Below, in pieces: positions 1,369 through 19,215 of a stretch of 48,542 bases of DNA. Source of the DNA: a virus. The notes under the pieces are model-generated. The model was not told the origin of the DNA and did not search any database. It worked only from the letters and a program-made list of their open reading frames with translations. The number at the start of each line of letters is the position of its first letter. The stretch's first letter is position 1. The position numbers and the translations under genes are program-made. The stretch covers positions 1 to 48,542 of the IMG/VR virus record IMGVR_UViG_3300038545_000026. The stretch is one strand, 5' to 3'.

Positions 1369-1369
1369 C

Positions 1370-2447: not shown

Positions 2448-2451
2448 TATT

Positions 2452-2643: not shown

Positions 2644-2654
2644 AAAACCGCCCA

Positions 2655-2756: not shown

Positions 2757-2766
2757 AATATAACCA

Positions 2767-3012: not shown

Positions 3013-3017
3013 ATACA

Positions 3018-3686: not shown

Positions 3687-3688
3687 CC

Positions 3689-4711: not shown

Positions 4712-4732
4712 TTACGTCCCTCGGTGGGCTAT

Positions 4733-4800
4733 TCTACCTAACGGTATGTATATGCACCGTATGAGGTACGAATATGGGGTATATATGATGTTACCCAAAG
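4733..4800. repeat. Intergenic imperfect palindromic element (family member A)
   Basis: CTACCTAACGG arm, ACGGT/ACCGT and GGGTA/TACCC hairpins, TATATGATGTTACCC arm. Confidence 0.55.
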
Positions 4801-4831
4801 TACGGATTATTAATTACAAAACTTAAATAGA

Positions 4832-5257: not shown

Positions 5258-5259
5258 TA

Positions 5260-5444
5260 TTGTGGGTAACGGGCAGCGTGTAAGGTTCGTGGATGCGCAG
5301 CATACACATTAGAACCGTTTGAGCTGCGCATCTATAAGCTTTAAACATTGTTAGCTATCTGTAGCCCAGCGATTAGAAATGAACAAAATAAATATTAACA
5401 GACGATTGCCGATGCGTAGCCATACGTTGACCGTTAGCCTACAA
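5260..5444. repeat. Composite intergenic palindromic element (family members B/C)
   Basis: TTGTGGGTAACGG (5260..5272) is inverted at CCGTTAGCCTACAA (5431..5444). Perfect 10-bp stem GATGCGCAGC/GCTGCGCATC (5292..5301 / 5323..5332). CATTGTTAGCTATCTG arm at 5346..5361. Confidence 0.65.
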
Positions 5445-5471
5445 TAAGCAATCTTTTAAACTATTAAAATT

Positions 5472-5597
5472 ATGAAATTTGATGATTGTGAACACAACTA
5501 TGGAACATACACTTGTTTTGAATCAGGTTATGAAAGGTGTAAAGCTTGTGGTGTTGTAATGAACGCTAGTAAAGAAGAATTTTATTCTGATGAATAA
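5472..5597 (+). CDS. small 4-Cys protein (41 aa), zinc-ribbon-like
   Basis: Hand-translated MKFDDCEHNYGTYTCFESGYERCKACGVVMNASKEEFYSDE. Confidence 0.4.
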   Translation: MKFDDCEHNYGTYTCFESGYERCKACGVVMNASKEEFYSDE

Positions 5598-5649
5598 TGC
5601 AAAAATGCAGTAATAATTTTACTGGTTTGATTGCGTGCCTCGATGGATA

Positions 5650-5711
5650 TTGTAGGCTAACTGTTTGTATAACCATCCGTTTTAATGGTGGTTATACGTT
5701 GTTAACTACTG
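5650..5711. repeat. Intergenic palindromic element (family member D)
   Basis: TTGTAGGCTAACTG arm, stem GTATAACCATC/GGTGGTTATAC (5667..5677 / 5687..5697), ATACGTTGTTAACTACTG arm. Confidence 0.65.
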
Positions 5712-5793
5712 TTATTTTTGTGCGGTGGCAAATTAATTTTGATAAAAATTAAAATATTTCTTTAAAATAGTTGTGTATATCATATATATAATA

Positions 5794-5801
5794 TATATTT
5801 G
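5794..5801 (+). promoter_or_regulatory. Bacteroidota-type -7 box TATATTTG (TAnnTTTG)
   Basis: Exact consensus, TTG about 23 nt upstream, 40 nt before the ATG at 5841. Confidence 0.45.
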
Positions 5802-5840
5802 TACTGTTGCAATGAAGCAATAACCTTAAACCTTTTAATT

Positions 5841-6065
5841 ATGAATACTTTAAACAACATAGTAGAAATGAACTTAACTCAAAGAGAAATAAACATTATA
5901 GCTTTTGAAGCCGAAGGTGTTAATCCTTACGATGCTAATATGATGGATGAGTTTTCTGTAAACACTTTTCATAGAATAATGAAAGCGTCTACCACTATAT
6001 TAAGCCCTTCTTATGTGGTTAGAAGATGTTATTTTCTTGTTAACGGTAAAAAATTATCAAACTAA
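5841..6065 (+). CDS. hypothetical protein (74 aa; start moved to the internal ATG downstream of the promoter box)
   Basis: The track ORF 5799..6065 would begin inside the -7 box. The MNTLNN start lies 40 nt downstream of it. Confidence 0.55.
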   Translation: MNTLNNIVEMNLTQREINIIAFEAEGVNPYDANMMDEFSVNTFHRIMKASTTILSPSYVVRRCYFLVNGKKLSN

Positions 6066-6235
6066 TGAACGATACACAAATAGAAACTTTAAACTGGTAT
6101 AAAAAAAACAGTTCAAAGTTTAAGAACATAGAATTTAAAATAACCTTAAAAGATGGTACTTTGAAGATAGTTACTAAAACCCATATTTATATAATGGGTA
6201 AAAGAGGCGGATTAATAAACATAGAAATACGATAA
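6065..6235 (+). CDS. hypothetical protein (56 aa)
   Basis: Hand-translated, TAATG overlap with the upstream gene. Confidence 0.5.
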   Translation: MNDTQIETLNWYKKNSSKFKNIEFKITLKDGTLKIVTKTHIYIMGKRGGLINIEIR

Positions 6236-6237
6236 TT

Positions 6238-6411
6238 ATGGACTTTTTAAATATGAATTTACCACCAGAGGATGAAAACAGTAACAAGTTTCCAAAATTA
6301 GATACTTGGTTTTATTTTATGAATGAGCAAATGGAAGAACTTGAAAAAGTACAACAAAAAGGTAGGATAAACTCATTGCTTTTTGATAATGATATAGATT
6401 TAATAGAATGA
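6238..6411 (+). CDS. hypothetical protein (57 aa)
   Basis: Hand-translated, ATGA overlap with the next ORF. Confidence 0.5.
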   Translation: MDFLNMNLPPEDENSNKFPKLDTWFYFMNEQMEELEKVQQKGRINSLLFDNDIDLIE

Positions 6412-6554
6412 GAAAACTAATAGACATAAAAGAAAAAGACATTGAACCATTAAAGATAATGGCAGTTAAGTCAAATAAAGACCTTAAAAACTACATTCAA
6501 GACGTTTTGAGTGAGCACGTTCTGCTTGGTGGCAAAAAAAATAATTGTAGTTAA
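6408..6554 (+). CDS. small protein (48 aa), possibly ribbon-helix-helix-like
   Basis: Hand-translated MRKLIDIKEKDIEPLKIMAVKSNKDLKNYIQDVLSEHVLLGG... The strand-helix-helix pattern is only suggestive. Confidence 0.4.
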   Translation: MRKLIDIKEKDIEPLKIMAVKSNKDLKNYIQDVLSEHVLLGGKKNNCS

Positions 6555-6635
6555 CGTTGAGCGTATGAAACGTAGCGTTTAGAAAGCACAAACTTTGAAT
6601 TAAACATTAACATTAATAATTAAATATTTTTTTAA

Positions 6636-6863
6636 ATGAAAACACAAGAAAGAGTTATATTAAATAGTGGAATTGTAGAAGAGAAAGGTTTTGAATGTGG
6701 CAATACGAATTGGTATTATAATGGTGAATTAAACCTTATTTTATGGTGTTGGGATACTTGGACTTTAGAAAGACCGCCTAAAAGCGCAGATGAAAGAGCG
6801 AAAGTAATAAAAGATAAAATTAGATATGTTGATGAGTTGGAAGATGTTTTAAAAAATATTTAA
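6636..6863 (+). CDS. hypothetical protein (75 aa)
   Basis: ORF track. Confidence 0.6.
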   Translation: MKTQERVILNSGIVEEKGFECGNTNWYYNGELNLILWCWDTWTLERPPKSADERAKVIKDKIRYVDELEDVLKNI

Positions 6864-7110
6864 TTATGGGTAAGTACACACGAAATAGATGGTTAAGCTC
6901 TTATGTAGCTATGTTTTATACGCATTGTTGTAAACCGCAGGGAACTGTTAATTTAAAACATTAAGAATGAAAGAACCAAAGCAGATAAGCGATAGAATAA
7001 AAGACCTTAAAAAAATTAAAAAAGAGTTTGACGAAGAGCCAATAACTAATAGACAGGAAATTAAAATACTTAATGACCGGATAAAGACTCTTGAATGGGT
7101 TTTAAATTAA

Positions 7111-7213
7111 TTGTTTACAACGGACGAGTGTATAGCAAGTAAGCCACGCGCTAAACTTTGAATTGAAATAATAACTTAATTGGCTTATTTGCTATACATA
7201 TTGTTAGCAACTG
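7111..7213. repeat. Intergenic long imperfect hairpin (family member G)
   Basis: TTGTTTACAACGG arm. A 19-nt stem GTGTATAGCAAGTAAGCCA (7128..7146) pairs with TGGCTTATTTGCTATACAT (7181..7199). TATACATATTGTTAGCAACTG arm. Confidence 0.7.
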
Positions 7214-7236
7214 GGCGGTTTTAAAACGAGAATATT

Positions 7237-7530
7237 ATGATGTACGCAAGTAAAATAGAAATAAAGTACGAACCACAAAAGGTTAGATACCAACGTGAAG
7301 TAGAGCTACCCGATAGGCTACTAACACTTGAAGATATAGGTAAACACCTAAAAGAAGGTGAGAAGTTTGGTTTCTTCCAAAGAGAAGAAGGAAGGCTTGG
7401 ACTACCTGTTGACTACATAAGCATACATGGGTACAGAGATGAAACCAAAGAAGAAGTAGATATAAGGGTAGCGAAAGCGGAGGAGTACAATGAAAACTAT
7501 GAAAAGTTTCATGCGAAGTACAGAAAGTAG
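7237..7530 (+). CDS. hypothetical protein (97 aa)
   Basis: ORF track. Confidence 0.65.
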   Translation: MMYASKIEIKYEPQKVRYQREVELPDRLLTLEDIGKHLKEGEKFGFFQREEGRLGLPVDYISIHGYRDETKEEVDIRVAKAEEYNENYEKFHAKYRK

Positions 7531-7532
7531 CC

Positions 7533-7674
7533 TTGTTGCTAACGGAAAAGTATATGAAAAGTAGGGGATTAAAAGTAAGTGACGTTTATTGTGGCGATAA
7601 TTTTGCAGACGTGCAGATAGCTCCGATTCTCAATAAATTACCCCCTATTTTTTATATACATTGTTACCTATCTG
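7533..7674. repeat. Intergenic palindromic element (family member H)
   Basis: TTGTTGCTAACGG (7533..7545) and ATATACATTGTTACCTATCTG (7654..7674), followed by TTAAAAACCGCC. Confidence 0.6.
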
Positions 7675-7728
7675 TAATTTTTAAAAACCGCCTGCGTGAG
7701 GTACGAGGGCAAATAAAACACAAAGAGA

Positions 7729-8439
7729 ATGAAATATATGGGAAGTAAAAATAGGTTTGCAAAGTATTTGTTACCTATAATTTTAAAAGACAGAAAGCCA
7801 AATCAATGGTATGTAGAGCCCTTTGTTGGTGGATGTAATATGATTGATAAAGTACAGGGTCATAGAATTGGTGCTGATGCAAATAAATATCTTATTGCTA
7901 TGTGGAAAGGATTGCAAGAGGATTTAAAAAGACCTTTGGAAATACCAAGAGAATTACACGCAGAAGCAAGGACTGAATATAATAACAGACAAAGCAATAA
8001 ATTTACAGATTTTGAAATTGGTTGGATTGGCTTTATGGCTTCTTTTAATGGTAGATTTTTTGGTGGTGGATATTCTGGAAAGCATAAAAATAGAGATTAT
8101 GTAAACGAGCAAATAAGAAACACAACTAAACAAATACCATTAATAAAAACAGTTGATTTTTACGATTGCGAATACCAAGATTTAGATATACCAAGTGAAA
8201 GTATAATTTATTGTGATATACCATATCAAGGAACAAAAGTATATGATAGTAAATTAGTTTTTGATTACCCTAACTTTTGGCAATGGTGTAGAGATATGAC
8301 AAAACAAGGACATAAAGTATTTATTTCAGAATACAATGCTCCAGAAGATTTTAAATGCTTATGGGAAAAAGAAACTAAAGTATCTATAAGACCTACAAAA
8401 ACATTAATTCAAACCGAAAAGTTATTCACGTATGAGTGA
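7729..8439 (+). CDS. dam: N6-adenine DNA methyltransferase, Dam/D12 class
   Basis: YMGSKNRF...EPFVGG (motif I) and CDIPYQG (DPPY-type motif IV), about 236 aa like T4/E. coli Dam. Confidence 0.85.
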   Translation: MKYMGSKNRFAKYLLPIILKDRKPNQWYVEPFVGGCNMIDKVQGHRIGADANKYLIAMWKGLQEDLKRPLEIPRELHAEARTEYNNRQSNKFTDFEIGWIGFMASFNGRFFGGGYSGKHKNRDYVNEQIRNTTKQIPLIKTVDFYDCEYQDLDIPSESIIYCDIPYQGTKVYDSKLVFDYPNFWQWCRDMTKQGHKVFISEYNAPEDFKCLWEKETKVSIRPTKTLIQTEKLFTYE

Positions 8440-8459
8440 GTGGCGGTTTTTAAAAATTA

Positions 8460-8597
8460 TTGTAGGTAACGGTTTGTATATGATTTTGTAGGCATAGACA
8501 AACGGATAATTTACGATTAACACCTACTTAAAAGACAAGAATTAAACATTGAAATATTAACCAACCGCCTATAAATTATATACTTTGTTATATGTAG
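8460..8597. repeat. Intergenic palindromic element (family member I)
   Basis: TTGTAGGTAACGG arm, CGGTTTGTATATG/CATAGACAAACGG stem, TATACTTTGTTATATGTAG arm. Confidence 0.6.
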
Positions 8598-8621
8598 TGC
8601 GGTTTTAAAAGACAAAATCTT

Positions 8622-8981
8622 ATGGGATGGGATTGCGATGATAAATTAGACCAAATGGGTGAAGATGCTAAAAGACATTTAAAAGACCATATAGAAATGT
8701 TATACATACAGGCAGTAAGCAAACTTTCTCCTAAAACAAAAAATGACACATCTAAAAAATTAGATAGTAAATTGATAGAAAACTTCCTTAAAAAACGAGG
8801 TTATACTATGAATTATGTTTTAGGAAAAACGGTTATGGTAAAAGCATTTACTTGTGTATATGTGCAAGATGATTATGTAGAAGTATGGCACGATAAAACA
8901 AACAATGATAAATCCGTTTTTGTTAATGAAAGTTTACTTACGGGATTGCCTATTACACTTAATTATATGGAACGAATTTAG
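8622..8981 (+). CDS. hypothetical protein (119 aa)
   Basis: ORF track. Confidence 0.6.
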   Translation: MGWDCDDKLDQMGEDAKRHLKDHIEMLYIQAVSKLSPKTKNDTSKKLDSKLIENFLKKRGYTMNYVLGKTVMVKAFTCVYVQDDYVEVWHDKTNNDKSVFVNESLLTGLPITLNYMERI

Positions 8982-9087
8982 CATTATATATAACGTTAAA
9001 GTATAAGACGTGTTGCTGAATTAAGAACAAACCATTATTAATATGCCATAAAAAAACAAAAAAGGTGTGGCAATAAAAACTAAAAAT

Positions 9088-9507
9088 ATGATTGTAAAGA
9101 CAAAATTTAGAGCCTTTTGTGAGGTGGAAACAGACAAAGGAACTGTAAATGAACTTATGTACTTTGATCCAATGGAGTGTGATAACGGACTTTGGTTTTC
9201 TGCTCCAGATAATGTTTGGCATATAAACGAGTATTTTATACTAATGCAATGGACTGGATTAAAAGACAAAAATGGAATTGATATTTACGAAGGTGATGTA
9301 GTAAAAGTGAATAAAGACGAGATAGGAAGTATTGACTTTAATAGGGGTAATTTTTGGGTAGGATTTTATCAAGAACCTTCACAACAAAACTTATCTGACT
9401 TTGTTAAATACAATTCTAAAACAGATGCTTACGACATTGTAGAAGTTGAAATAGTTGGCAAAATAGATTTTGAAAATGTAACAAGACATTTAACCGTAAG
9501 TAGCTAA
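9088..9507 (+). CDS. YopX-family protein
   Basis: LMQWTGLKDKNGIDIYEGDVVKV matches the YopX core. The track start at 9067 is GTG, so the first ATG (9088) is preferred. Confidence 0.75.
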   Translation: MIVKTKFRAFCEVETDKGTVNELMYFDPMECDNGLWFSAPDNVWHINEYFILMQWTGLKDKNGIDIYEGDVVKVNKDEIGSIDFNRGNFWVGFYQEPSQQNLSDFVKYNSKTDAYDIVEVEIVGKIDFENVTRHLTVSS

Positions 9508-9533
9508 AAAAGCGCAAAGGCTTTTGTTTTTTT
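9506..9533 (+). terminator. weak intrinsic terminator
   Basis: AAAAGC-GCAAAG-GCTTTT hairpin followed by a T-rich run. Confidence 0.4.
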
Positions 9534-9587
9534 ACATTGGGTTAAGAACTGACCTTAATAATTAAGCACAAGCCTTGCAATACGTTT

Positions 9588-9660
9588 TATACGGTGTTAC
9601 CAACTGGCGCACCTTATAGAGTATTGATAAACGCAACCTTTGTGCGCTTGTTGGTAACGG
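9588..9660. repeat. Intergenic palindromic element (family member K)
   Basis: GGTGTTACCAACTGGCGCAC (9593..9612) is inverted at GTGCGCTTGTTGGTAACGG (9642..9660). Confidence 0.7.
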
Positions 9661-9713
9661 ATGGTGGTATGAGTAGTAAATAAAACGGATTAATAAACTA
9701 AAAATTAAATATT

Positions 9714-9926
9714 ATGACAACTGAAGAAAACAAAACAGAAATTACAAAATTAAGCACTTGGGATATGGCAGACACTGTTGTAAAATGGGAAGGATATGAC
9801 CAGACAACAATACCTGAACCAACTGCAAGAAATATGAAATTGTATATGGATAAAATAAATGAACTTACAGAAGCTGTAAATAAATTAACTGCACTTAATA
9901 AGGGCTTAATTGATGCACTAAAGTAG
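9714..9926 (+). CDS. hypothetical protein (70 aa)
   Basis: ORF track. Confidence 0.6.
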   Translation: MTTEENKTEITKLSTWDMADTVVKWEGYDQTTIPEPTARNMKLYMDKINELTEAVNKLTALNKGLIDALK

Positions 9927-9976
9927 TTTTATTTATTACTTATACCACGTGTTGTAAAATCGTTTTAATGTTTTAC

Positions 9977-10013
9977 AACTATCATATATCAACAATACTA
10001 GAAAAATCAACAC
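9977..10013 (+). repeat. 37-bp direct repeat, copy 1 (27-bp perfect core 9987..10013)
   Basis: AACTATCATATATCAACAATACTAGAAAAATCAACAC matches 17087..17123 at 35/37 positions. Ends 7 nt before the integrase ATG. Confidence 0.9.
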
Positions 10014-10020
10014 ATAAGAT

Positions 10021-10815
10021 ATGAGTTTATACAAAATTACAGAACAAAAATTGTATTATTTAGGATATTCAGAAAACACTATTAAAACTTATTTGAATTA
10101 CATTTTTGAGTTTGACCAATGGTCGAAAAAACATCACTCAAGGTTAAATTCAAAAGACATTCAAGTGTATTTAGATGATTACAAATTCAGTTCTAGGTCA
10201 CAACAAAACCAAGTTATAAGCTCATTAAAGTTTGCATGGGAAAAAGTTCTTGGTAAGAAGTATTTAAAAATTGATTTTAAAAGACCTAAAAAACAAAAGA
10301 AATTACCCAAAATAATTGACGCAGAATTACTAGCTGAAAAAATCAAAAGTATTAGTAATTTAAAACACAGAGCAATATTAACTATAGGTCTTAGCTGTGG
10401 ATTAAGAGTTTCAGAAGTTATAAATCTTAAATGGGAACATTTAGACCGTAAAAGAAATATCTTAAACGTTGTAAATGGAAAAGGTAGTAAAGATAGATGT
10501 TGTGTGTTGAATGATGATTTAATATTGTTATTAGAGGATTATTGGAGAGAGTTTAAATCTAAGGAATATATTTTCAATGGTCAAAAGTCGTTAAAATATT
10601 CTCAAAGCAGTATTCAAAGTATAGTTAAGAATTACATACATAGAAACGCTTCATTTCACTTTTTGCGTCATTCGTATAGCACGTTTGCTATTGATAATGG
10701 AACAGAATTAAAGCCTTTAGCGTATAGTTTAGGTCATAATTCTACAAAAACAGTTGAACAGTTTTATTTTCATCAATCAACAAAAACTTTAAAAACTATA
10801 AAGCAAGCTATCTAA
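10021..10815 (+). CDS. int: tyrosine recombinase/integrase (XerC/D-like, 264 aa)
   Basis: N-terminal SAM-like core-binding domain. Catalytic signature GLRVSEV ... HFLRHSYST ... LGHNSTKTVEQFY (R, HxxR, H, Y). Confidence 0.85.
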   Translation: MSLYKITEQKLYYLGYSENTIKTYLNYIFEFDQWSKKHHSRLNSKDIQVYLDDYKFSSRSQQNQVISSLKFAWEKVLGKKYLKIDFKRPKKQKKLPKIIDAELLAEKIKSISNLKHRAILTIGLSCGLRVSEVINLKWEHLDRKRNILNVVNGKGSKDRCCVLNDDLILLLEDYWREFKSKEYIFNGQKSLKYSQSSIQSIVKNYIHRNASFHFLRHSYSTFAIDNGTELKPLAYSLGHNSTKTVEQFYFHQSTKTLKTIKQAI

Positions 10816-11474
10816 TGAAAAAATGCAAAGGAACAGGTAAAGCTAAAGGATTTGGCTGCAATAAAGAACTAGATTTTGTCATTGGTCAAAACGGTATTAA
10901 ATCGTATAAAGCAAAGTACGGTTTGGGTTATGCCTGTGGATGTTTTGCTAAATGGCTTTATACTTCTGAAAAAGGAGAAGAGATACTTCATAAATCAATG
11001 ACCGTTGCAAAACGTAAAGTTGAGAAAGAAAAGAAAGCAGAAACAAGACGTAAAAAAGACGAATTAAACAGCTCTAGAGCAATGAAGCTTGCAGATATGT
11101 ATTTTAGCCAATATATACGCTTAAAACACTCTGAAAATGGCTTTTGTACTTGTTATACTTGTGGAGATATAAATCCCATTAAAGGCACGGACAATGGTCA
11201 TTGGCAAAAGCGCAAAGAGAAATCTACTAGATACCATGAAAACAATTGTAGACCACAATGCCGAACGTGTAACGGTAATACAGCTAAAAACGGTATGCAA
11301 TTAGAGTTTAGAGAAAACCTAGTTAGAGAACTTGGAGAAGATGAAGTGCAAGAATTAGAAAGATTAGCGAAAACAACAATAGATGCTAACAGTTACTTTT
11401 ATAGAGCTATTGCAACGAAATATCGTAAACTGGTCAATGACCTACAAAAAGAATTAGGAGTTAAATACTGGTAA
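10815..11474 (+). CDS. ninG: NinG/Rap-like recombination endonuclease
   Basis: CKGTGKAKGFGC plus CYTCGD...GHWQKR...CRPQCRTCNG...EFRENLVRELGEDEVQELE matches the lambda NinG pattern. Confidence 0.75.
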   Translation: MKKCKGTGKAKGFGCNKELDFVIGQNGIKSYKAKYGLGYACGCFAKWLYTSEKGEEILHKSMTVAKRKVEKEKKAETRRKKDELNSSRAMKLADMYFSQYIRLKHSENGFCTCYTCGDINPIKGTDNGHWQKRKEKSTRYHENNCRPQCRTCNGNTAKNGMQLEFRENLVRELGEDEVQELERLAKTTIDANSYFYRAIATKYRKLVNDLQKELGVKYW

Positions 11475-11490
11475 TAAAAAAATATTAATC

Positions 11491-11775
11491 ATGAAAATAT
11501 ACATTGGAAAAAACAAAAAAGAGGCTAAACAAATATCATTAAAAGATTTATTAGCTCTAAAATTAAGTCAAGACTTGAAAGATAAAAACGTATGTAGAAA
11601 AGGTAGATTTAGTGATGATTCTGCGTCATGGATAGATTTACGAAAGACAACAGAAAAAGGAGCTATTGATATTGTTATATGTTTTGACCCTGAAACAGAA
11701 AATACTTTTACAGATATTGACGTTTATAAAAGCAAATGGATTTTAGACGAAGAGAATATGAAAAAACTAACTTAA
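11491..11775 (+). CDS. hypothetical protein (94 aa)
   Basis: ORF track. Confidence 0.6.
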   Translation: MKIYIGKNKKEAKQISLKDLLALKLSQDLKDKNVCRKGRFSDDSASWIDLRKTTEKGAIDIVICFDPETENTFTDIDVYKSKWILDEENMKKLT

Positions 11776-11830
11776 ACGAAATAAGAAACTATTACAAACA
11801 AAAAATAAAAGAATCAAAAAACAATGACCA

Positions 11831-11995
11831 ATGAGAAATCTATCATTCAAACAATTCTGTGACAAAGTAAAAGGACACAAATTCTACAATAAACAAGGGT
11901 CGGAAATTTACAAATACGAGTTATACTACTTAGGTATTAATCCGCACTTGTTAATGATTAATGAAACTAAGTATATCAAAATGAAAAGAAAGTAA
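11831..11995 (+). CDS. hypothetical protein (54 aa)
   Basis: Hand-translated MRNLSFKQFCDKVKGHKFYNKQGSEIYKYELYYLG... Confidence 0.4.
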   Translation: MRNLSFKQFCDKVKGHKFYNKQGSEIYKYELYYLGINPHLLMINETKYIKMKRK

Positions 11996-12013
11996 ACTAA
12001 AACCCTAAAAACC

Positions 12014-12556
12014 ATGATTACTAACAGAATTATTAAACACATGGTCGAGAACTACATGAGAATAGAAAGTCTTTCTATAAACTCACGTAAAAGAGTTTAT
12101 GTAGACTCTCGGTCAGTGTATTACAAGCTATGTAGAGTGTTTTCAAGAAACCGTTCTTATGAAATGATAGGAAAGCAAATAGGTAGAAATCACGCAACTG
12201 TAATTCATGGAGAAAAACTATTCGACGACCTTTATGGAACCATTGGTTTTTCCGTGATGAGTATTATGTATGACAACCTATATAAACAGTTATTAATTTT
12301 AGCAGACGAACCTGAACAAGTTTGTGAAATTCAGCAGCTACAAGACGCTAAAAGATATTATAGGGCTAGATATATTGCTCAGATTGATAAATCACATTCT
12401 GTAATAAGCACATTGACCAGCAAAGTAAATTTGCTCACAAAAAACGATTTGGTTAAGAAAATCTTGAACCTTGATGCAGAAGGAATCGAAGAACTAGAGG
12501 AAAGACTAACACCCTTTTTTAAAATGAAAGAACAAAATAAAATAACTAAACCTTGA
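12014..12556 (+). CDS. DnaA-domain-IV-like helix-turn-helix protein (possible replication initiator/regulator)
   Basis: SRKRVYVDSRSVYYKLCRVFS..SYEMIGKQIGRNHATVIHGEKLFDDL parallels the DnaA C-terminal DNA-binding domain. Confidence 0.6.
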   Translation: MITNRIIKHMVENYMRIESLSINSRKRVYVDSRSVYYKLCRVFSRNRSYEMIGKQIGRNHATVIHGEKLFDDLYGTIGFSVMSIMYDNLYKQLLILADEPEQVCEIQQLQDAKRYYRARYIAQIDKSHSVISTLTSKVNLLTKNDLVKKILNLDAEGIEELEERLTPFFKMKEQNKITKP

Positions 12557-12576
12557 TTTATTAAGATATTTTTAGT

Positions 12577-12584
12577 TATATTTG
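12577..12584 (+). promoter_or_regulatory. Bacteroidota-type -7 box TATATTTG
   Basis: Exact TAnnTTTG with TTG about 24 nt upstream. No ORF follows. Confidence 0.45.
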
Positions 12585-12589
12585 CATTG

Positions 12590-12683
12590 TGCGCCTGACA
12601 ATAGCACAGCAAGAAATACAATATAAAGGTTTTACCGAAGTAGTCAGTCAGGCGGCGAAAAGGTAAAGCCTTTTTTGTTTTTT
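12590..12683 (+). ncRNA. candidate ~95-nt small RNA or attenuator
   Basis: Bounded by the promoter box and a terminator. Competing pairings: TGTGC/GCACA hairpin versus CGCCTGAC (12592..12599) pairing with GTCAGGCG in the terminator loop. Confidence 0.4.
12625..12683 (+). terminator. intrinsic terminator
   Basis: 12-bp stem AAAGGTTTTACC/GGTAAAGCCTTT followed by TTTTTTGTTTTTT. Confidence 0.55.
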
Positions 12684-13047
12684 AAGCGCAATACAGGGAC
12701 TTTTTTATAAAAGCTGACAATTGGAAAACAAATAAGAAAATGCAGTACAATGGGATGTAAGCATACTGCAAGGCCAATGCGAAATAGGGATGGCCGCTTA
12801 CAAAACACCGAAAGTGGATTAAGCCCTAAACTTTTACTAAACGGTTAAAGTAAAAGACCTTTACAAGACTCAGAACTCATTTGAACTGAATGTTTAGGTA
12901 TACGCAAGGTACTAGGCCTTGCTATACCCTCTAAGATCTAGAATCTAATTACCTGAATGTTTAATACTCTAATAATATATACTTATAATAATCATTAAAA
13001 TCAACTAATTATATAAAATAATAGTTTGTTTTAAATATTTAAATTAA

Positions 13048-13055
13048 TATATTTG
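13048..13055 (+). promoter_or_regulatory. Bacteroidota-type -7 box TATATTTG
   Basis: Exact consensus 26 nt upstream of the ATG at 13081, TTTG about 23 nt upstream. Confidence 0.45.
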
Positions 13056-13080
13056 TATTAGAAGTTTTATTTATATAATT

Positions 13081-13707
13081 ATGAAAACAGAAGTTATTAT
13101 CTCTCGTCCTTTTATGGGCTCGGAGATTAATCAAAAAAGTAAGTCTGGAATGTTTGATGCTACTGGTTTAGTTAAGATAGCTAATATTAAAAGACGAGAA
13201 CTTGGCCAATCAGTATTTAATTTATCTCAGTTCCTTAAATCTAAATCCACAAAAGAGTTCATAGAAGAGCTGCAGAAAGATAACGAAAGAGTTATTATAA
13301 GAGGTAGAGGATCTAAATCTGTTACATGGGTTCATCCTTTGCTTTTTATTGATATAGCACTGAGCATTAACCCAAAGTTCAAAGTTGAGGTTTATAAATG
13401 GCTCTACGATGAACTATTGAGATACAGAAATGATAGTGGAGATAGCTATAGAAAAATGGCTGGAGCTATCTATGAAAAATGCGACAATAAAGGAAAGTTT
13501 CATAAATACATAACAAAGGTGGCCAACTACATAAAAACAAACTGCAATGTAGAAGATTGGAATAAAGCCACGCAAAACCAATTGTATTTAAGAGATAAGA
13601 TGCATGAGAATATTTCATTGCTTTGTTCAGTTTTAAATAACACAGACCATGCTGTTAGAATTGGAGTCACAAAAGCAAAAGAAGATAATAAAGACTTGAT
13701 TAATTAA
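13081..13707 (+). CDS. KilA-N domain protein
   Basis: GMFDATGLVKIAN...TKEFIEEL...GSKSVTWVHPLLFIDIALSINPKF matches the KilA-N DNA-binding domain. Confidence 0.75.
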   Translation: MKTEVIISRPFMGSEINQKSKSGMFDATGLVKIANIKRRELGQSVFNLSQFLKSKSTKEFIEELQKDNERVIIRGRGSKSVTWVHPLLFIDIALSINPKFKVEVYKWLYDELLRYRNDSGDSYRKMAGAIYEKCDNKGKFHKYITKVANYIKTNCNVEDWNKATQNQLYLRDKMHENISLLCSVLNNTDHAVRIGVTKAKEDNKDLIN

Positions 13708-13758
13708 TCTTGGCCAATGATAATACTTAACTTTAAAAGGCTATAAATTGAATTAACT

Positions 13759-13983
13759 ATGGACTTAAAATATAATAATAATTGCGATACTTGTGGTGAT
13801 ACATTTTTAACAAGAGATGCTTTTGCTAAAACTTGCACATTATGCGAAATGGAAAACACAATAAATAAGCTTGAAGCTTTTTCTGTAGAAAACACTAAAC
13901 ATAATTGGTTTGAGAAATTGCCTCTACATTTAAGGTTGTTGATTTACTTTGTTAGTGGATTTTTAATAGGTTTAATATTTTAA
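13759..13983 (+). CDS. CxxC...CxxC zinc-finger protein with a C-terminal TM helix (74 aa)
   Basis: CDTCGD...CTLCE plus LLIYFVSGFLIGLIF. Confidence 0.55.
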   Translation: MDLKYNNNCDTCGDTFLTRDAFAKTCTLCEMENTINKLEAFSVENTKHNWFEKLPLHLRLLIYFVSGFLIGLIF

Positions 13984-13986
13984 GCT

Positions 13987-14166
13987 ATGACAAAACAAGA
14001 CAAGGAGCGAAAACTAAAATTGATACAGCTTATTATTATTTGTGAGTTTGTTAAATCAATGAAGATTGAAAATGAAAGTTTGATTGATATATTCTACTCT
14101 AGAGTCGCTATAAAATGTTGGTGGAACGAGTATTTATTAATTATATCTCAACCTATTGAACCATGA
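13987..14166 (+). CDS. hypothetical protein (59 aa)
   Basis: Hand-translated. ATGA-type overlap with the next ORF. Confidence 0.45.
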   Translation: MTKQDKERKLKLIQLIIICEFVKSMKIENESLIDIFYSRVAIKCWWNEYLLIISQPIEP

Positions 14167-14330
14167 AACCAAAGTACATATCACATAGCATAGTATCAAT
14201 GACCGACAATTGCATAATGTTATATAACTTTGAATCGACCAATGTAGTAAGTAACATTTCATGCAATATAAAATCAGCACGTAAAACTAAGTCTAAGGAC
14301 TTGGTGGGAATTTGGAAAATTAAAAAATAG
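14163..14330 (+). CDS. hypothetical protein (55 aa)
   Basis: Hand-translated + strand ORF, preferred over the antisense track ORF 14153..14335. Confidence 0.4.
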   Translation: MKPKYISHSIVSMTDNCIMLYNFESTNVVSNISCNIKSARKTKSKDLVGIWKIKK

Positions 14331-14334
14331 AACA

Positions 14335-14499
14335 ATGGACGAATGTAAAAAAATAGAATTAATAAGAACTAACTTGTTAAGAAGAGGTTCAGGGAAAGAC
14401 GAAAATGATTGTATTCGAGTAATAACCCAATATTGGACTTTGGATGGTGTTTTGTTGTTTGAATTTGACCCTTTAAAAAATCCAGAACCTCAATTATGA
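14335..14499 (+). CDS. hypothetical protein (54 aa)
   Basis: Hand-translated, ATGA overlap with the ORF at 14496. Confidence 0.45.
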   Translation: MDECKKIELIRTNLLRRGSGKDENDCIRVITQYWTLDGVLLFEFDPLKNPEPQL

Positions 14500-14831
14500 T
14501 AGACTTACCATTTAATAGTATTGATTTCAGCGAAGCATGGAGCGATTATTTAGATAATAAGCTAGAAAATCATAAATTTGAGTACAAGAGTGAGCGGTCA
14601 ATGAAAGCAGCATTAAAAAAGCTATACAGATACGCTCATGGAAAAGAAGAAATAGCAATAGCTATATTAGAGAACTCTATTAGTGAGAATTGGAGAGGTT
14701 TTTTTCCTTTGCAATACAATGACCCATTAATGATAAAACTACGTCAAGAATCGGTCAATGCTCCTAAGAAAAAAAGCGCAGCACAAATAATACAAGAAGT
14801 AAAAAACGGAACTTATGGAAATAATTCATGA
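14496..14831 (+). CDS. hypothetical protein (111 aa)
   Basis: ORF track. Confidence 0.6.
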   Translation: MIDLPFNSIDFSEAWSDYLDNKLENHKFEYKSERSMKAALKKLYRYAHGKEEIAIAILENSISENWRGFFPLQYNDPLMIKLRQESVNAPKKKSAAQIIQEVKNGTYGNNS

Positions 14832-15027
14832 TATCATAAAAGAAAGTGTAAGCGGTGGATTTTGGAAGTTTATCGGTTACTGGATAATGATAGTTGTTAT
14901 ATTCGGAATACCAGCTAAGGTTGTAATTTTTGCCATAAATAGACCTCTAAGACATTGGTCAATAAGAAAACATGGTTACCCTCCAAGTCATTGTGATGCG
15001 GATGGTGATTTCAAGAAAGAAGATTAA
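14815..15027 (+). CDS. small membrane protein (70 aa)
   Basis: FWKFIGYWIMIVVIFGIPAKVVIFAI hydrophobic stretch. Confidence 0.55.
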   Translation: MEIIHDIIKESVSGGFWKFIGYWIMIVVIFGIPAKVVIFAINRPLRHWSIRKHGYPPSHCDADGDFKKED

Positions 15028-15029
15028 TC

Positions 15030-15767
15030 ATGACAAAGCTAATAGTTAAAAACGAAACTCTACCTCTCAAGGCTTTTCCAAAAGAGACATTGACCACTAT
15101 TTTAGAAGGTGAATTTGCAGTATGGATAAGTAATTTACTTGGGCTCACTGGAGAAGATAGCGCAAAACGTCTTTTAGTAGCGCTACCAGCTATAGAAAAA
15201 CATTTTTGGTCATTGGGGTTTGATGAAATACAAAAAGCCTTTATAATGTATGTAGATGGAGAATTAACTACTAAGCCGCTATCAAATTTTTTGGACAGGG
15301 CATTAGTTGGTAAAATATTCCATGAGTACAAGGAGCAAAAACCAAGAAAGCAACCAAAGGTAAAGGAGATTTCAGACGAGAGCAAGTTTCTTTACACGCA
15401 AAGCGGCTTAATGAAGTGTTTGAATCATTTCGAGAAACACAAATCCGTCCTTGATGGTTATGCGAACTTTCTTTATGACATACTTTACGAAGAGTATTTG
15501 CCTAAAGATAAAGAGTATAAGCAAAAGATTTACAATGATGCGAAACTCGTGATGCAAATGGAACTCCAGGAGAAAAAAGCATCCTCATCTAAGGAATTTA
15601 AGGTTTTAAAGGAAGCTTTGAAAGAGATTGAGGGAAGTCGGTCAATGAAAGTCATTGCAAAATCAAAAGAATTAATAGTACTAGAGTTTTTATTCAAACT
15701 ATTCAAAGACCAACAACTAATGAAAAAACTATTAACCGAATACAAAATCAAAAAGGATGAAAAGTAA
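15030..15767 (+). CDS. hypothetical protein (245 aa)
   Basis: ORF track. The antisense ORFs opposite are low-complexity. Confidence 0.65.
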   Translation: MTKLIVKNETLPLKAFPKETLTTILEGEFAVWISNLLGLTGEDSAKRLLVALPAIEKHFWSLGFDEIQKAFIMYVDGELTTKPLSNFLDRALVGKIFHEYKEQKPRKQPKVKEISDESKFLYTQSGLMKCLNHFEKHKSVLDGYANFLYDILYEEYLPKDKEYKQKIYNDAKLVMQMELQEKKASSSKEFKVLKEALKEIEGSRSMKVIAKSKELIVLEFLFKLFKDQQLMKKLLTEYKIKKDEK

Positions 15768-16395
15768 AATACTAATATGTTTTGCAGGAATAGGTGGAGA
15801 ATCTGAATTATGGAATGATGTTGAGAATGACATTACTCATGTTGAGATAGATCCTAAAATTGCCAAAGTAATATCTGATCGTAAACCTAACAGGAAAGTT
15901 ATCGTTGCAGATGCTTATGATTTTCTTTTGAATAATTTTCAAGAGTACGATTTTATTTGGTTGTCTCCTACTTGTCAAGCTAATAGTAGAATGATAAGAA
16001 GTGGAAAGAATCGTAAACCTCGTTACCCTGATTTAAGTTTATATGAAATAAAAATATTTCTGGACTACAACTTCAAAGGTGACTATGTAATAGAAAATGT
16101 AGTTCCATATTATAAACCTGTAATAGAACCAACTATTAAACTAGGTAGACATATTTTTTGGTCAAATTTTGAAATAGATGATAAGTTTGAATTAAATCAA
16201 CCAAAAGGATTTATTACTTTAGGAACTGTTTCAGCTTCTGAAAAACTAAAAAATTGGTTAGGTATAGATTATGAAGGCAATATTTATTATAACGGAAATC
16301 ACGACCCTTGCCAGGTATTAAGAAATGCTGTTCATCCTTTACTCGGAGAACATGTTTTTAATTGCTACAAAAACTATAAAAATGCAAAACAGTAA
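15757..16395 (+). CDS. miniature DNA cytosine-C5 methyltransferase (212 aa)
   Basis: FAGIGG (motif I), PTCQANS (PCQ motif IV), VIENVVP (ENV motif VI), LRNAVHP (motif X). Very short segment where a target-recognition domain normally sits. Confidence 0.75.
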   Translation: MKSKILICFAGIGGESELWNDVENDITHVEIDPKIAKVISDRKPNRKVIVADAYDFLLNNFQEYDFIWLSPTCQANSRMIRSGKNRKPRYPDLSLYEIKIFLDYNFKGDYVIENVVPYYKPVIEPTIKLGRHIFWSNFEIDDKFELNQPKGFITLGTVSASEKLKNWLGIDYEGNIYYNGNHDPCQVLRNAVHPLLGEHVFNCYKNYKNAKQ

Positions 16396-16531
16396 CCTAG
16401 AAGAACAATTCAAAAAAGACGATTTAGGATTATTTATAAATGCAGAGAATTACCAAGAGTGTAGAGAAGCTATAATTAAACTAAAACCGACCATTGACCA
16501 GAAAGAAAGACTTCATATTCCCACCAGATAA
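16382..16531 (+). CDS. hypothetical protein (49 aa; start moved to the internal ATG)
   Basis: The track ORF 16325..16531 overlaps the methyltransferase by 71 nt. The MQNSNLEE start reduces the overlap to 14 nt. Confidence 0.4.
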   Translation: MQNSNLEEQFKKDDLGLFINAENYQECREAIIKLKPTIDQKERLHIPTR

Positions 16532-16688
16532 AGAAGTAGAGCTGATAGCTACCAAAGGCGAAGAAGTATTTTCTATGATTTTGCCTTATGAAAAAGCGCT
16601 CAATGTTCCTCGTAAAAAAGGATGGAACTACAAAGTATACCAAATAGGTTTCGCACAGTATAAAGGGAAAATACAGAAAAGTTTATAA
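16494..16688 (+). CDS. hypothetical protein (64 aa), TTG start or +1-frame continuation of the previous ORF
   Basis: No ATG near the 5' end. Overlaps 16382..16531 by 38 nt in the +1 frame. Confidence 0.35.
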   Translation: MTRKKDFIFPPDKEVELIATKGEEVFSMILPYEKALNVPRKKGWNYKVYQIGFAQYKGKIQKSL

Positions 16689-16755
16689 CGTAATTGTGTA
16701 TGCCACGTTGCTTATAAATTAACTAAAATATTGAACAATTAAACAACAAAATAAA

Positions 16756-17088
16756 ATGGAAAATACTAAAGAATTAAGCACTGAAAAGCAATGTGATATA
16801 CACGTTGTTAGCAGTAGTAATAATTTCTTAATTAGGCAAATAAGCGAAAATGAATTTATTATACTTAAAAAATATAAAGAAGAAACTACGAAAGGGTATT
16901 TGTGGTGGAAGAAAACAATAATCGAAGAAAAATACAGAAGAATTGATAGATATGGTAATAAATATTTTTGTATTATTTACCCTATTTATTTTACAAATTT
17001 AAGCGATATTGACACATATAAAACTTTTGAAGATGCAAAAAAGTGGATAGAAAACTATAACAAATACCCGATTGATTATTACTGCTAA
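16756..17088 (+). CDS. hypothetical protein (110 aa)
   Basis: ORF track. Its N-terminal coding region contains a copy of the TATACACGTTGTTAGCAGTAG arm (16797..16817). Confidence 0.55.
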   Translation: MENTKELSTEKQCDIHVVSSSNNFLIRQISENEFIILKKYKEETTKGYLWWKKTIIEEKYRRIDRYGNKYFCIIYPIYFTNLSDIDTYKTFEDAKKWIENYNKYPIDYYC

Positions 17089-17123
17089 CTATTATGTATC
17101 AACAATACTAGAAAAATCAACAC
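17087..17123 (+). repeat. 37-bp direct repeat, copy 2 (27-bp perfect core 17097..17123)
   Basis: Matches 9977..10013 at 35/37 positions. Confidence 0.9.
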
Positions 17124-17171
17124 TTTAACCATTGTTTTATACAAAATCACAAATTAAAAACTGTGTTAAAA

Positions 17172-17696
17172 ATGAAAAAACTATTATTAACTGCATTACT
17201 ATTAATAGGATTGATTAGTAATGCTCAATTGCAAGTAAATCTAGGCATTGACCCGAAAATAGCAATCCTAGGAACAGACAATAAATACACATCGCACGAT
17301 GCATTATTTAACTACGAGATTAAAATCGAATACTTAAAAGAAACAATCAACAATCCAAACAATAAGATTTACTTCAATGTAAATTATAAGTTTGTAAATT
17401 TAGAGTATAAATATCACTCTATTGGATTTGGAATAGGTTGTCAAACACCTAGATATTTATTTAATCAAAAGTTGCTCATTGTACCGCAGATACAAGCAGA
17501 AAGAATAACAAGAGATATTTACAACGGTAATAGAGCATCTGTAATAACTTTAAAAGGAATAACTAGCATAAGACTACCTTTAGATAGAAATGAGCGTTTA
17601 CAATTTGGATTTGCGCCCTATGTTCAATGGTCAAGAGATATTGGTAAGACGTTTAGATATGGAAGCAATGTTGAATTAATTATAAAAGTGTTTTAG
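17172..17696 (+). CDS. secreted small outer-membrane beta-barrel protein (Lom/OmpX-like)
   Basis: Signal peptide MKKLLLTALLLIGLISNAQ, alternating amphipathic strands, C-terminal ...ELIIKVF with a terminal Phe (OMP beta-signal). Confidence 0.65.
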   Translation: MKKLLLTALLLIGLISNAQLQVNLGIDPKIAILGTDNKYTSHDALFNYEIKIEYLKETINNPNNKIYFNVNYKFVNLEYKYHSIGFGIGCQTPRYLFNQKLLIVPQIQAERITRDIYNGNRASVITLKGITSIRLPLDRNERLQFGFAPYVQWSRDIGKTFRYGSNVELIIKVF

Positions 17697-17698
17697 AT

Positions 17699-17884
17699 AT
17701 GGAGAAAACTAACATATATAAACTTGAAAAAATAGGTCTTTATTGGCATATAATGAGGTTGCATTATGTAGGGTGGTGGATATTTAAGAGTCGAGTTTGG
17801 TTGTCTGAATTTCCATACTATCTATACAAAGAAGATGCTGATAAGGCTTTCAAAGAAATAACTAAAAACCATGAACCTAAATAA
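17699..17884 (+). CDS. hypothetical protein (61 aa)
   Basis: ORF track. Confidence 0.5.
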   Translation: MEKTNIYKLEKIGLYWHIMRLHYVGWWIFKSRVWLSEFPYYLYKEDADKAFKEITKNHEPK

Positions 17885-18137
17885 ACCAAAAACATCAAAG
17901 GCAGAAATACTATTCACGCTCATTGATAAAGGAGAAGTATCTATTATGGATTTTCCTTATCTTAGTAGTTTTAGAACTAGAGTATCTGACCTTAAAATCA
18001 AAGACAATTTACCTTTAATTAGAGAAATGAGAAAAGGAGTAAATAAATTCAATAACACATACACTTACGCAGTACATAGATTAAATCCTTTTTATACTAG
18101 GCAAGCTGTGGAGTTGTATAAATTAATAAATGGTTAA
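17871..18137 (+). CDS. hypothetical protein (88 aa), possible winged-helix
   Basis: ORF track. The fold guess is weak. Confidence 0.55.
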   Translation: MNLNKPKTSKAEILFTLIDKGEVSIMDFPYLSSFRTRVSDLKIKDNLPLIREMRKGVNKFNNTYTYAVHRLNPFYTRQAVELYKLING

Positions 18138-18415
18138 TGAAAAAACTAAACAGAAAACAAAGGAACTTAAGATATATAAGGATAAAGAATAATATCAGAA
18201 GAAGTGGTGTTGTGTATAATTATTTTTCAATACCTAATGATTCTAGTGAGGATTTTATCAATCAATTTATAGATGCTGAAAATAAAATAAATATAGAGAA
18301 TTTAACTAAAACATATAAGATGGATTTTAAAGTAGAATCCATAAGTGTAGGTCTAGTTAATGATGATTTTAGTCAATTTATAAACACATATAAAATAGGG
18401 TATTCTAAAGCGTAA
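18137..18415 (+). CDS. hypothetical protein (92 aa)
   Basis: ORF track, ATGA-type junction. Confidence 0.55.
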   Translation: MKKLNRKQRNLRYIRIKNNIRRSGVVYNYFSIPNDSSEDFINQFIDAENKINIENLTKTYKMDFKVESISVGLVNDDFSQFINTYKIGYSKA

Positions 18416-18576
18416 TAACCGATTAAATTATTTTTTTGTATATTTGAACTTATGAAAAGAGACTTAGGATGTTTTAATCCTATAAATTGGTATGGATAAA
18501 CAAGGAATCGACGAATTGTCAGATATGTCTTGAACGAAAACAGGAATTTAAATAATAACTTTAAATATAAAGAAAA

Positions 18577-18834
18577 ATGGGAGTAATTAAAGATGGATTC
18601 AATGATTTTAAAGCATGGTATCAATCAAAAACAATTATAGCAGTAGTTCTAGGTGTTGTGTCAACAGTTTTAGGATTATTTGGAATAGATATTGGTGACG
18701 TTGTAAATGTAACGTTTACAGAAGCAGAAGCCGCAGCAGACCAAGTAGATGCAATTTGGATTAGCGTTCAAAACTTAGTTTTCTTTGCTGTTGCCGCATG
18801 GGGAAGGATAAAAGCACAAGTACAAATTAGATAG
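18577..18834 (+). CDS. two-TM small membrane protein (holin-like)
   Basis: Two hydrophobic helices (IIAVVLGVVSTVLGLFGI, LVFFAVAAWG) and a charged C-terminus. Confidence 0.5.
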   Translation: MGVIKDGFNDFKAWYQSKTIIAVVLGVVSTVLGLFGIDIGDVVNVTFTEAEAAADQVDAIWISVQNLVFFAVAAWGRIKAQVQIR

Positions 18835-18870
18835 TATTTTATTTTTCATAGATTTAGTTTTTAGTTAATT

Positions 18871-18896
18871 AAGCATCGTTTATTCGGTGCTTTTTT
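18871..18896 (+). terminator. intrinsic terminator
   Basis: AAGCATCG-TTTATT-CGGTGCTT hairpin followed by TTTTTT. Confidence 0.65.
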
Positions 18897-18975
18897 ATTA
18901 TGATAGCATTATTAATATTAATAAGTATAGTTTGGCAAGTAATACTTGTTAGACTTACACCAAATACATTTGACA

Positions 18976-19215
18976 ATGAGCAAAGCAGGATTAGGAGATA
19001 TAATAGGAATAGGAACGGTAATAGCAGAGCTTTTTAAGTTATTAGAACCTACTGAAACAAGACTACAGATAAAACGCCTTAGACAATTTAGAAGAGGTCG
19101 CAAAAAGCTTTATAAGGAATTTAAAAAAGATGGTTTAACCAATGACGAAAAAGCGACCCTTGAAAAGTTAGATAGTGCTTATGTAGAAATGCTTTTAAAG
19201 CTAGGTAAGATGTAA
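18976..19215 (+). CDS. hypothetical protein (79 aa from the internal ATG)
   Basis: Track ORF 18946..19215. The MSKAGLGDIIG start is preferred. Confidence 0.5.
   Translation: MSKAGLGDIIGIGTVIAELFKLLEPTETRLQIKRLRQFRRGRKKLYKEFKKDGLTNDEKATLEKLDSAYVEMLLKLGKM

Follow-up and report, generated by a model that had tools for sequence, protein, structure and literature searches.

The stretch of DNA described here (the window, 48,542 nt in full) comprises positions 1 to 48,542 of the virus record IMGVR_UViG_3300038545_000026 of IMG/VR. It carries two + strand copies of a 37-nt direct repeat, copy 1 at 9977-10013 and copy 2 at 17087-17123 (7,110 bp from start to start), of which copy 1 lies immediately upstream of int, the gene of a 264-aa tyrosine recombinase. 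The two copies are considered, at a probability of about 0.55, to be attI-like docking sites of an integron-like phage cassette system. This system is integron-like in operation, but not a member of the integron family. In the proposed mechanism the attI-like site beside int, with its two ATCAACA direct repeats, would undergo crossover in the AAC at its upstream edge (in the sequences below a caret marks the junction). Small cassettes would lie upstream of the site, each ending in a GTTnnCnAAC 9-mer that is sometimes the foot of an imperfect attC-like hairpin, and would be joined to the site and to one another at AAC. Copy 1 would be the working, int-linked site. Copy 2 would be an orphan site left by a second recombinase module of a different lineage, whose int decayed to a 13-codon stub and was then replaced by another gene, and whose central 27 nt came to match copy 1 exactly, through short-patch gene conversion or because selection favoured recognition by the only recombinase left. 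It would serve as a second docking point, supplied with recombinase in trans and with its own upstream cassette (16690-17089). The mobile units to which the evidence points are the small cassettes upstream of the site.

The two copies agree at 35 of 37 positions, differing at repeat positions 7 (C/T) and 10 (A/G), and contain a 27-nt core that is identical in both. With up to three mismatches allowed, this core was matched twice in the window and not at all in 100 dinucleotide shuffles, and the number of exact 27-mer repeats expected by chance is about 2e-6. The ungapped homology between the copies extends over 82 nt (66/82 matching). In the 45 nt 3' of the 37-mer, 31 positions match (binomial P about 2e-8), a level reached by 2.5e-5 of random window pairs. 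This extension holds codons 1-13 of int in copy 1 and is decayed and non-coding in copy 2, where it represents a recombinase gene stub. The recombinase ATG (10021) follows the end of copy 1 after 7 nt, and the two ATCAACA direct repeats of the site are 18 nt apart. The repeat is not a chance match; its copies are copies of the site that accompanies the recombinase gene and is probably its cis-acting site. An earlier reading of the window (the original prediction) had described the repeat with its coordinates, its 35/37 match and perfect 27-bp core, the two ATCAACA units and the distance to the integrase start. All of these were confirmed, and the homology proved longer than had been claimed.

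The same site was found by pattern and protein searches directly upstream of int in at least 16 distinct phage contexts (L001, L004/L083, L022, L032, L033, L044, L057, L075, L082, L084, L086, L089, L090 and the Polaribacter phage Freya among them, L numbers denoting the loci compared). The recombinases of these contexts range from 92% identity to that of the window down to 35% in Freya. Beyond the site and the recombinase, the loci have none or few other genes in common with the window, and the homology among them has a sharp start at AAC and runs as far as the recombinase stop codon; the match of L086 to the window starts at 9976. As judged from these alignments, the site travels with the recombinase gene through otherwise unrelated Flavobacteriaceae phages. 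The exact 27-nt core had no match in IMG/VR, and a search of IMG/VR and GenBank phages for close relatives of the flanking genes gave none that was useful. Orphan sites like copy 2 occur in L027, L028, L049 and L056. In several unrelated phages such sites are intact from AAC through both boxes and stand directly upstream of a co-oriented gene, and in L049 the homology ends at the ATG, where int is replaced by another gene. The orphan site of L028 and the int-linked site of L032 come from the same sample and are identical over 58 nt, so that they probably represent a second pair of sites. Several contigs begin or end near the site. L028 begins 1 nt before its site, L010 and L012 (two assemblies of one sample) start at 17084, 3 nt before copy 2, L015 ends at 9978, and L089 and L090 start 26-27 nt upstream. 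These ends could reflect assembly-graph branching caused by junction variants, or physical DNA ends.

At positions 900-960 of Cellulophaga phage phi39:1 (L005), upstream of the small terminase gene, the hairpin found before copy 1 recurs together with AACTACCATATAT, the first 13 nt of the site; this locus has no recombinase gene and is probably a relic of the module.

Alignment of the sites allowed three segments to be distinguished. Segment A (AACTAYNATATATCAACAATA) is almost invariant across phages, while segment B agrees at 15/15 positions between copy 1 and copy 2 and at 9-12/15 between phages. The left flank of copy 2 (TTATTACTGCT) and its segment C (CTTTAACC) are of the L086/L044/L027 lineage, unlike copy 1, which matches the L033 lineage. 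Since flanks and segment C differ in lineage and segment B is identical, the copies are of different ancestry with a homogenised centre. The history given above for copy 2 is a reconstruction from these flanks and the stub, and copy 2 is presumed to be bound by the recombinase.

The recombinase is a simple two-domain protein without an arm-binding domain, and the stop codon of its gene overlaps the NinG start. At E<=1e-20 its family comprises 561 proteins. Inspection of the translation located the catalytic R, K, H-x-x-R, H and Y (in GLRVSE, GKGSKDR, HFLRHS, LGH and EQFYFH), and Pfam Phage_integrase is matched over positions 15-170 of its 172-position profile. By its translation, the protein has the catalytic residue set of an active tyrosine recombinase. 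The best protein matches were the XerA model (1.8e-42) and the XerC-like protein of PDB entry 4a8e (1e-22), with all Xer models scoring below their cut-offs (XerA 145.7 versus 220, XerD 110 versus 330, XerC 106 versus 335). A dif-like 11-6-11 dyad, ATACAAAATTA CAGAAC AAAAATTGTAT, is found at 10029-10056, within int codons 3-13; it is not present in L004-type modules, and is kept in the orphan copies with altered central bases (CAAATT in copy 2, TGGAAC in L028). This dyad could be a second core for recombination, or a coincidence of the coding sequence.

Natural junctions, seen in the Freya isolates and in a cassette shared between phages, fall within the AAC at the edge of the conserved site adjoining int. 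Ten isolates of Freya from one host are recorded with differing genome lengths, and Freya_10 (MT732472, L093) served as the reference. Freya_1 corresponds to Freya_10 4098-48075 with 100% identity over 43,978 nt and is without the 4,942 bp immediately upstream of the site. The record starts of Freya_5, Freya_8 and Freya_9 and the record end of Freya_2 likewise place break points at five junctions on Freya_10, and each difference in record length equals one deletion between two of the five. The junctions are each preceded by the 9-mer GTTTACAAC, GTTACCAAC, TTTACCAAC or GTTGCTAAC. The deletion products always combine the 9-mer of the left partner with the downstream sequence of the right partner, which places the crossover within the shared AAC. 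The int-linked site is an endpoint of four of the five deletions, and Freya_6 has a different 441-nt stretch (cassette) beside the site, ending in CTACCAAC^. Because the junctions J4 and J5 have little in common beyond AAC, a homology-driven deletion is disfavoured and a site-specific event is favoured, presumably one catalysed by the recombinase encoded beside the site. The isolates compared (1, 2, 5, 6, 8 and 9) differ from Freya_10 only in small cassettes upstream of the site. The words 'deletion', 'indel' and 'insertion' are absent from the paper describing the Freya isolates.

The 321-bp cassette that borders copy 1 in the window has counterparts of 98% identity in the phages L015 and L017, its left edge being visible in L015 and its right edge in L017; both edges follow AAC. 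The final AAC of the hairpin at its 3' end is the opening AAC of copy 1. This hairpin (-5.8 kcal/mol, z -2.25) is conserved in phi39:1, L015 and L017. The long imperfect hairpin that separates the cassettes upstream of copy 1 folds at -14.6 kcal/mol (z -3.5), a value equalled by 0 of 200 shuffles, and the hairpins at two Freya junctions also fold much better than shuffles. Hairpins and 9-mer motifs stand at cassette ends both in Freya_10 and at 7.1-10 kb of the window. The 5' end of the cassette-like unit upstream of copy 2 is homologous to a unit of Polaribacter phage P12002L.

The decamer CGTTTTAATG, which forms the loop of the hairpin before copy 1 (9961-9970, +), recurs at 5678-5687 (+), 35238-35247 (-) and 43148-43157 (-). 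In each place it is the loop of an intergenic hairpin oriented with transcription, the stems differing. In L032 and L075 it also stands 6 nt before the site, and phi39:1 and L017 each contain it twice. Its conservation may mark the loop of attC-like elements or a site bound by a protein.

A connection to published attC sites is provided by P12002L. Qi et al. 2023 (PMC9892861) searched the genomes of phages for components of integrons and described in P12002L a cluster of attC sites without an integrase around its two methylases; P12002L_attC2 recombined with attI1 under IntI1 (PMC9892861). The same study reported that a Shewanella prophage holds, besides a complete integron, a cluster of attC sites lacking integron-integrases (CALIN) that has its own attI (PMC9892861), a precedent for a second docking site. 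P12002L is related to the window, with 75-78% identity in the methylase DNA, about 70% in the NinG region and 80.6% by megablast. Its attC2 was located at L100 5624-5692, where it overlaps a GGGTAAC^ junction and shortly precedes gene 0052 and NinG; this is the region where the window has copy 1 and int. Both TGCTAAC and CGTTTTAATG, the loop of the window hairpins, are present in the attC1 primer. Two sequences consisting of a junction and the following cassette start, AAC^GGACGAGT (at 7121 in the window) and AAC^GTAATTGTGTATG (at 16689), are common to the window and P12002L in differing order, which is what cassette shuffling would give. The CALIN of P12002L (PMC9892861) differs in that no integrase was found there and tests used the bacterial IntI1 only, whereas the present system has a candidate cognate recombinase, an attI-like site and natural cassette indels in isolates.

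The site is not a classical prophage attP, a candidate that was rejected because the site is intact and internal in two lysogens. These lysogens, L082 and L083, are represented by the complete chromosomes of Winogradskyella forsetii and of Changchengzhania lutea (CP039456). In both, int and the uninterrupted site lie in mid-prophage, bordered by 10 kb of phage genes on each side, among which replication genes precede the site and terminase genes follow it. A search for attB-like copies of a 21-nt pattern of the site in 185,579 species genomes gave 16 matches against about 9 expected (an estimate for equal base frequencies), a chance-level result, the one real match being a phage-like contig with a frameshifted recombinase. 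The literature on flavobacterial phage integrases gives no att sites. The module resembles lambda-type int/attP modules in its int gene with an adjoining conserved non-coding site and in the attL-int...attR order of its direct repeats, but differs in that the site is internal to the prophage, has no attB-like copy beyond chance matches in the genomes searched and stands beside the gene of a recombinase without an arm-binding domain. In the C. lutea prophage (L083, 3003-8750), three genes for 426-aa group II intron reverse transcriptases (RVT_1 + GIIM) are located within 6 kb, directly upstream of the methylase and the recombinase site.

The likeness to integrons is found in several features. 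The docking site is immediately beside a tyrosine recombinase gene, and holds two direct repeats (compare DR1/DR2 of attI1), with the apparent crossover in a conserved AAC/GTT triplet. It adjoins an array of small, mostly single-ORF (open reading frame) units, several of them next to imperfect hairpins, and these units are lost, swapped and common to different genomes exactly at the triplet. The N-terminal half of the recombinase matches the integron-integrase model and VchIntIA (2a3v), the latter match being limited to recombinase residues 15-173. Other observations weigh against the docking-site reading. The 264-aa recombinase lacks the IntI-specific insertion, and scores 101.7 bits with the integron-integrase model TIGR02249 (cut-off 265), for which the best stretch is residues 8-175 only. 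The large hairpins have GTT in the 5' arm and AAC in the 3' arm, the mirror of the polarity of canonical attC sites. The cassettes read towards int, since their ORFs and int are all on the + strand, and no Pc promoter was identified. The system is moreover found in genomes of Bacteroidota phages, which is a further difference from integrons. The window holds 37 occurrences of the 9-mer motif versus 21 +/- 4.5 in shuffles, only a moderate enrichment, and the motif is rare upstream of int in L015, L082 and L084. No 11-6-11 dyad of the Xer/Cre type was seen on inspection of the aligned sites in segments A-B. Most relatives have no second site within 6-10 kb of int; L086, the closest syntenic relative, has one site and no second copy in 10.8 kb. 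The recombinase of Freya, which provides the deletions, is only 35% identical to that of the window. The attC1 of P12002L gave no recombination with IntI1 (PMC9892861), and the last bases of the cloned P12002L attC2 differ from the genome.

Among other known systems, Xer/dif (XerA, XerH, XerS; cer/psi) is the nearest by protein, sharing the two domains and a short site beside the gene; it differs from the present system in its 11-6-11 dyad, in the scores below cut-off, and in that cassette indels are not dimer resolution. In T4-type phages, PeSL (promoter-stem-loop) cassettes are said, in work of Arbiol et al. 2010, to flank small ORFs in hyperplastic regions and to mediate their shuffling, which was reportedly explained by homologous recombination of the promoter repeats, without a recombinase of its own. 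The likeness is in the short repeated intergenic stem-loops flanking small ORFs; in the window and its relatives, by contrast, a recombinase gene is close by, and the junctions coincide with a 3-nt triplet that has little homology around it.

In the original prediction the bracketed 7.1-kb segment was possibly an integrated, satellite-like element in the layout attL-int...attR. On this explanation the 7,110-bp segment is a discrete int-carrying element, a large cassette or hitchhiker, that inserted into a resident site; it is bounded by the repeats as attL and attR and can still be released as a circle by the recombinase. Both repeat edges are AAC^ junctions of the type used in Freya. The flanks of different lineages, with an int stub at copy 2, are what an int-carrying circle entering a resident site would leave, and the contigs that start just before copy 2 also suit this history. 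The explanation is nevertheless unlikely. attL and attR would have only the crossover core in common, whereas here 82 nt with a homogenised centre are shared; the copies are not hybrid core-sharing sites, copy 2 being a full site plus stub with flanks of another lineage. Other full-length assemblies (Logan, ENA) are 100% identical to the window over the stretches fetched, all with both copies, and in none of the 9-11 contigs with flanking genes is the 70-aa gene adjacent to the gene that follows copy 2; among them, no contig was found to lack the 7.1-kb segment proposed to be excised as a circle. A look-up of five genes by exact protein gave no deletion or circle variants, the contigs showing the full arrangement or unrelated contexts. 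Relatives with exactly this segment present or absent, proposed as a check, were not found, the relatives having one site, and the segment was not found as a unit elsewhere. A foreign composition of the segment was rejected, as GC is 0.28-0.34 both inside it and in the flanks. Its content consists of ordinary early or nin-region genes, and the order int-NinG-DnaA_C is also present in the one-site L086, while P12002L keeps the order methylase...NinG...DnaA-like with no int in the stretch read. Excision would also remove int and probably needed genes. What stands of the original prediction is a probable recombination site, which is tied to the recombinase and has its left edge at natural junctions.

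Excision of the 7,110 bp, including int, by recombination between copy 1 and copy 2 is possible but unsupported. If the copies recombine, the predicted deletion junction is ...cgttttaatgttttacaac^TATTATGTATCAAC (also as cgttttaatgttttacaac^TATTATGTATCAACAATAC) and the predicted circle junction is ...gattattactgctaac^TATCATATATCAAC (also as gattattactgctaac^TATCATATATCAACAATAC). The appearance of an element inside a phage thus becomes, under the docking-site reading, that of two docking sites with testable predicted junctions.

Copy 2 may instead be a passive relic of a lost module or of an old duplication, homogenised by a Rad52-like annealing protein and without present function. The int stub has decayed, and the phage encodes a Rad52/22-family protein (3018-3686) as well as NinG. 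Segment B varies between phages and is identical within the genome, which recent conversion fits better than universal constraint, and most relatives manage with one site. The explanation is judged improbable, since orphan sites recur in unrelated phages with the stretch from AAC through the two boxes intact and a co-oriented gene downstream. In addition, 35/37 positions are kept in the repeat versus 31/45 beyond it; 27 straight matches at 30% divergence have a P of about 7e-5 (0.7 to the power 27).

A purely regulatory site, that is an operator, promoter or leader common to int and to the gene after copy 2 and bound by the recombinase or some other factor with no strand exchange, is very unlikely: both copies do lie just upstream of a + strand ORF, the L049 homology ends at the ATG of the replacing gene as if an expression signal had been reused, and the spaced ATCAACA repeats resemble a regulator site, but the repeat has no TAnnTTTG -7 box and no conserved RNA structure (-1.7 kcal/mol), and deletions and cassette swaps ending exactly at the site edge are left unexplained. 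The Bacteroidota sigma-A promoter (-7 TAnnTTTG, -33 TTTG) is absent from the + strand of both copies and present in other intergenic regions, with boxes at about 5795, 13047 and 18440 and, on the - strand, near 35200 and 43080. A canonical promoter was rejected for lack of the -7 box, and an RNA-level explanation because neither an Rfam family nor a conserved fold was found. The comparative evidence thus favours a recombination site over the plain operator or promoter that the original prediction had offered as its alternative. Both the regulatory role and the passive relic explain the junction data less well than docking sites do.

The enzymes that cut and paste small accessory genes of phages are mostly unknown; here exact junctions can be linked to a specific recombinase and site. 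If true, the docking-site reading would supply a mechanism by which abundant marine phages of Bacteroidota gain and lose gene cassettes, would account for the orphan attC clusters reported in P12002L, and would extend the concept of the integron to a recombinase that lacks the IntI insertion. A bolder version, in which a phage analogue of the integron takes up, loses and trades hairpin-ended cassettes between phage genomes during co-infection and the two sites let int and about 6 kb of early genes circularise and dock in further phages as a self-mobilising cassette, is tentative and on balance doubtful. The Freya isolates, which are 100% identical where compared except for the cassettes beside the site, represent a culturable test system.

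Table 1. Features of the repeat system and of the bracketed segment (window positions unless Freya_10 is named; a caret marks the junction).
Feature	Position	Strand	Remarks
Copy 1, int-linked site	9977..10058	+	37-nt repeat 9977-10013, core 9987-10013; homology to copy 2 through int codons 1-13
Copy 1 left edge			...TTTTACAAC^TAT
Copy 2, orphan site	17087..17168	+	37-nt repeat 17087-17123, core 17097-17123
Copy 2 left edge			...CTGCTAAC^TAT
Decayed int 5' stub after copy 2	17131-17168	+	ATT for ATG, TAA at codon 9
Tyrosine recombinase, 264 aa, Xer/IntI-like	10021..10815	+	SAM_4 N-terminal domain and catalytic domain
321-bp cassette upstream of copy 1	9659..9979	+	70-aa ORF (9714-9926) and 3' hairpin
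Bounds of the 321-bp cassette			left ...GTTGGTAAC^, right ...TTTTACAAC^
Hairpin abutting copy 1	9944..9979	+	GTTGTAAAA-N11-TTTTACAAC, loop CGTTTTAATG
Long imperfect attC-like hairpin	9596..9658	+	GTTACCAAC ... GTTGGTAAC; separates cassettes upstream of copy 1
Cassette-like unit upstream of copy 2	16690..17089	+	110-aa ORF 16756-17088; bounds GTTTATAAC^ (16681-16689) and CTGCTAAC^
Junction motif GTTTACAAC^GGACGAG	7113..7121	+	the junction before the P12002L methylase cassette has this motif and the same next bases
Further intergenic junction motifs	end at 7543 and 9604	+	
Variable region of Freya_10	48076-48920 and 1-4100		five junctions at AAC after a GTTnnCnAAC 9-mer
NinG	10815-11474	+	profile match
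Bac_DnaA_C helix-turn-helix protein	12014-12556	+	profile match
Non-coding stretch, 524 nt	12557-13080		ends in a canonical TATATTTG box upstream of KilA-N
KilA-N	13081-13707	+	profile match
PHROG 26016 protein	15030-15767	+	
Methyltransferase-like protein	15757-16395	+	PHROG DNA-methyltransferase match
Remainder of the bracketed segment, including ORFans	10815..16688	all +	GC same as flanks
174-aa gene in place of int after copy 2	17172..17696	+	signal-peptide-like N-terminus by inspection

The gene content ascribed to the segment in the original prediction was borne out by profile matches (Phage_integrase and SAM_4 in the recombinase, NinG, Bac_DnaA_C, KilA-N and a PHROG DNA-methyltransferase). 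The label of a 'Lom-like OMP' (outer membrane protein) for the gene after copy 2 was not, as this gene has no Pfam or PHROG match. No Rfam family was found for the 524-nt non-coding stretch. All genes from about 300 to 19,200 are on the + strand. The host is probably a member of the Flavobacteriaceae, as suggested by the DNA matches to Cellulophaga phage phi39:1 and Polaribacter phage P12002L, by Bacteroidota-type TATATTTG promoter boxes in several intergenic regions, and by relatives of the recombinase in Tenacibaculum, Winogradskyella, Olleya and others. The window, JGI contig Ga0246062_00003, has identical 127-nt ends (1-127 and 48416-48542) and thus represents a 48,415-bp circular assembly; the terminal overlap includes tandem repeats of 20 nt that are rich in AT (26-75). 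A tRNA-Met (CAT) gene is located at 46729-46803 (-), in the non-coding region between the structural block and a small-terminase-like gene. A gene resembling homing endonucleases of the HNH/NUMOD4/AP2 type (Pfam labels) lies at 25441-26109 (-), within the structural block.

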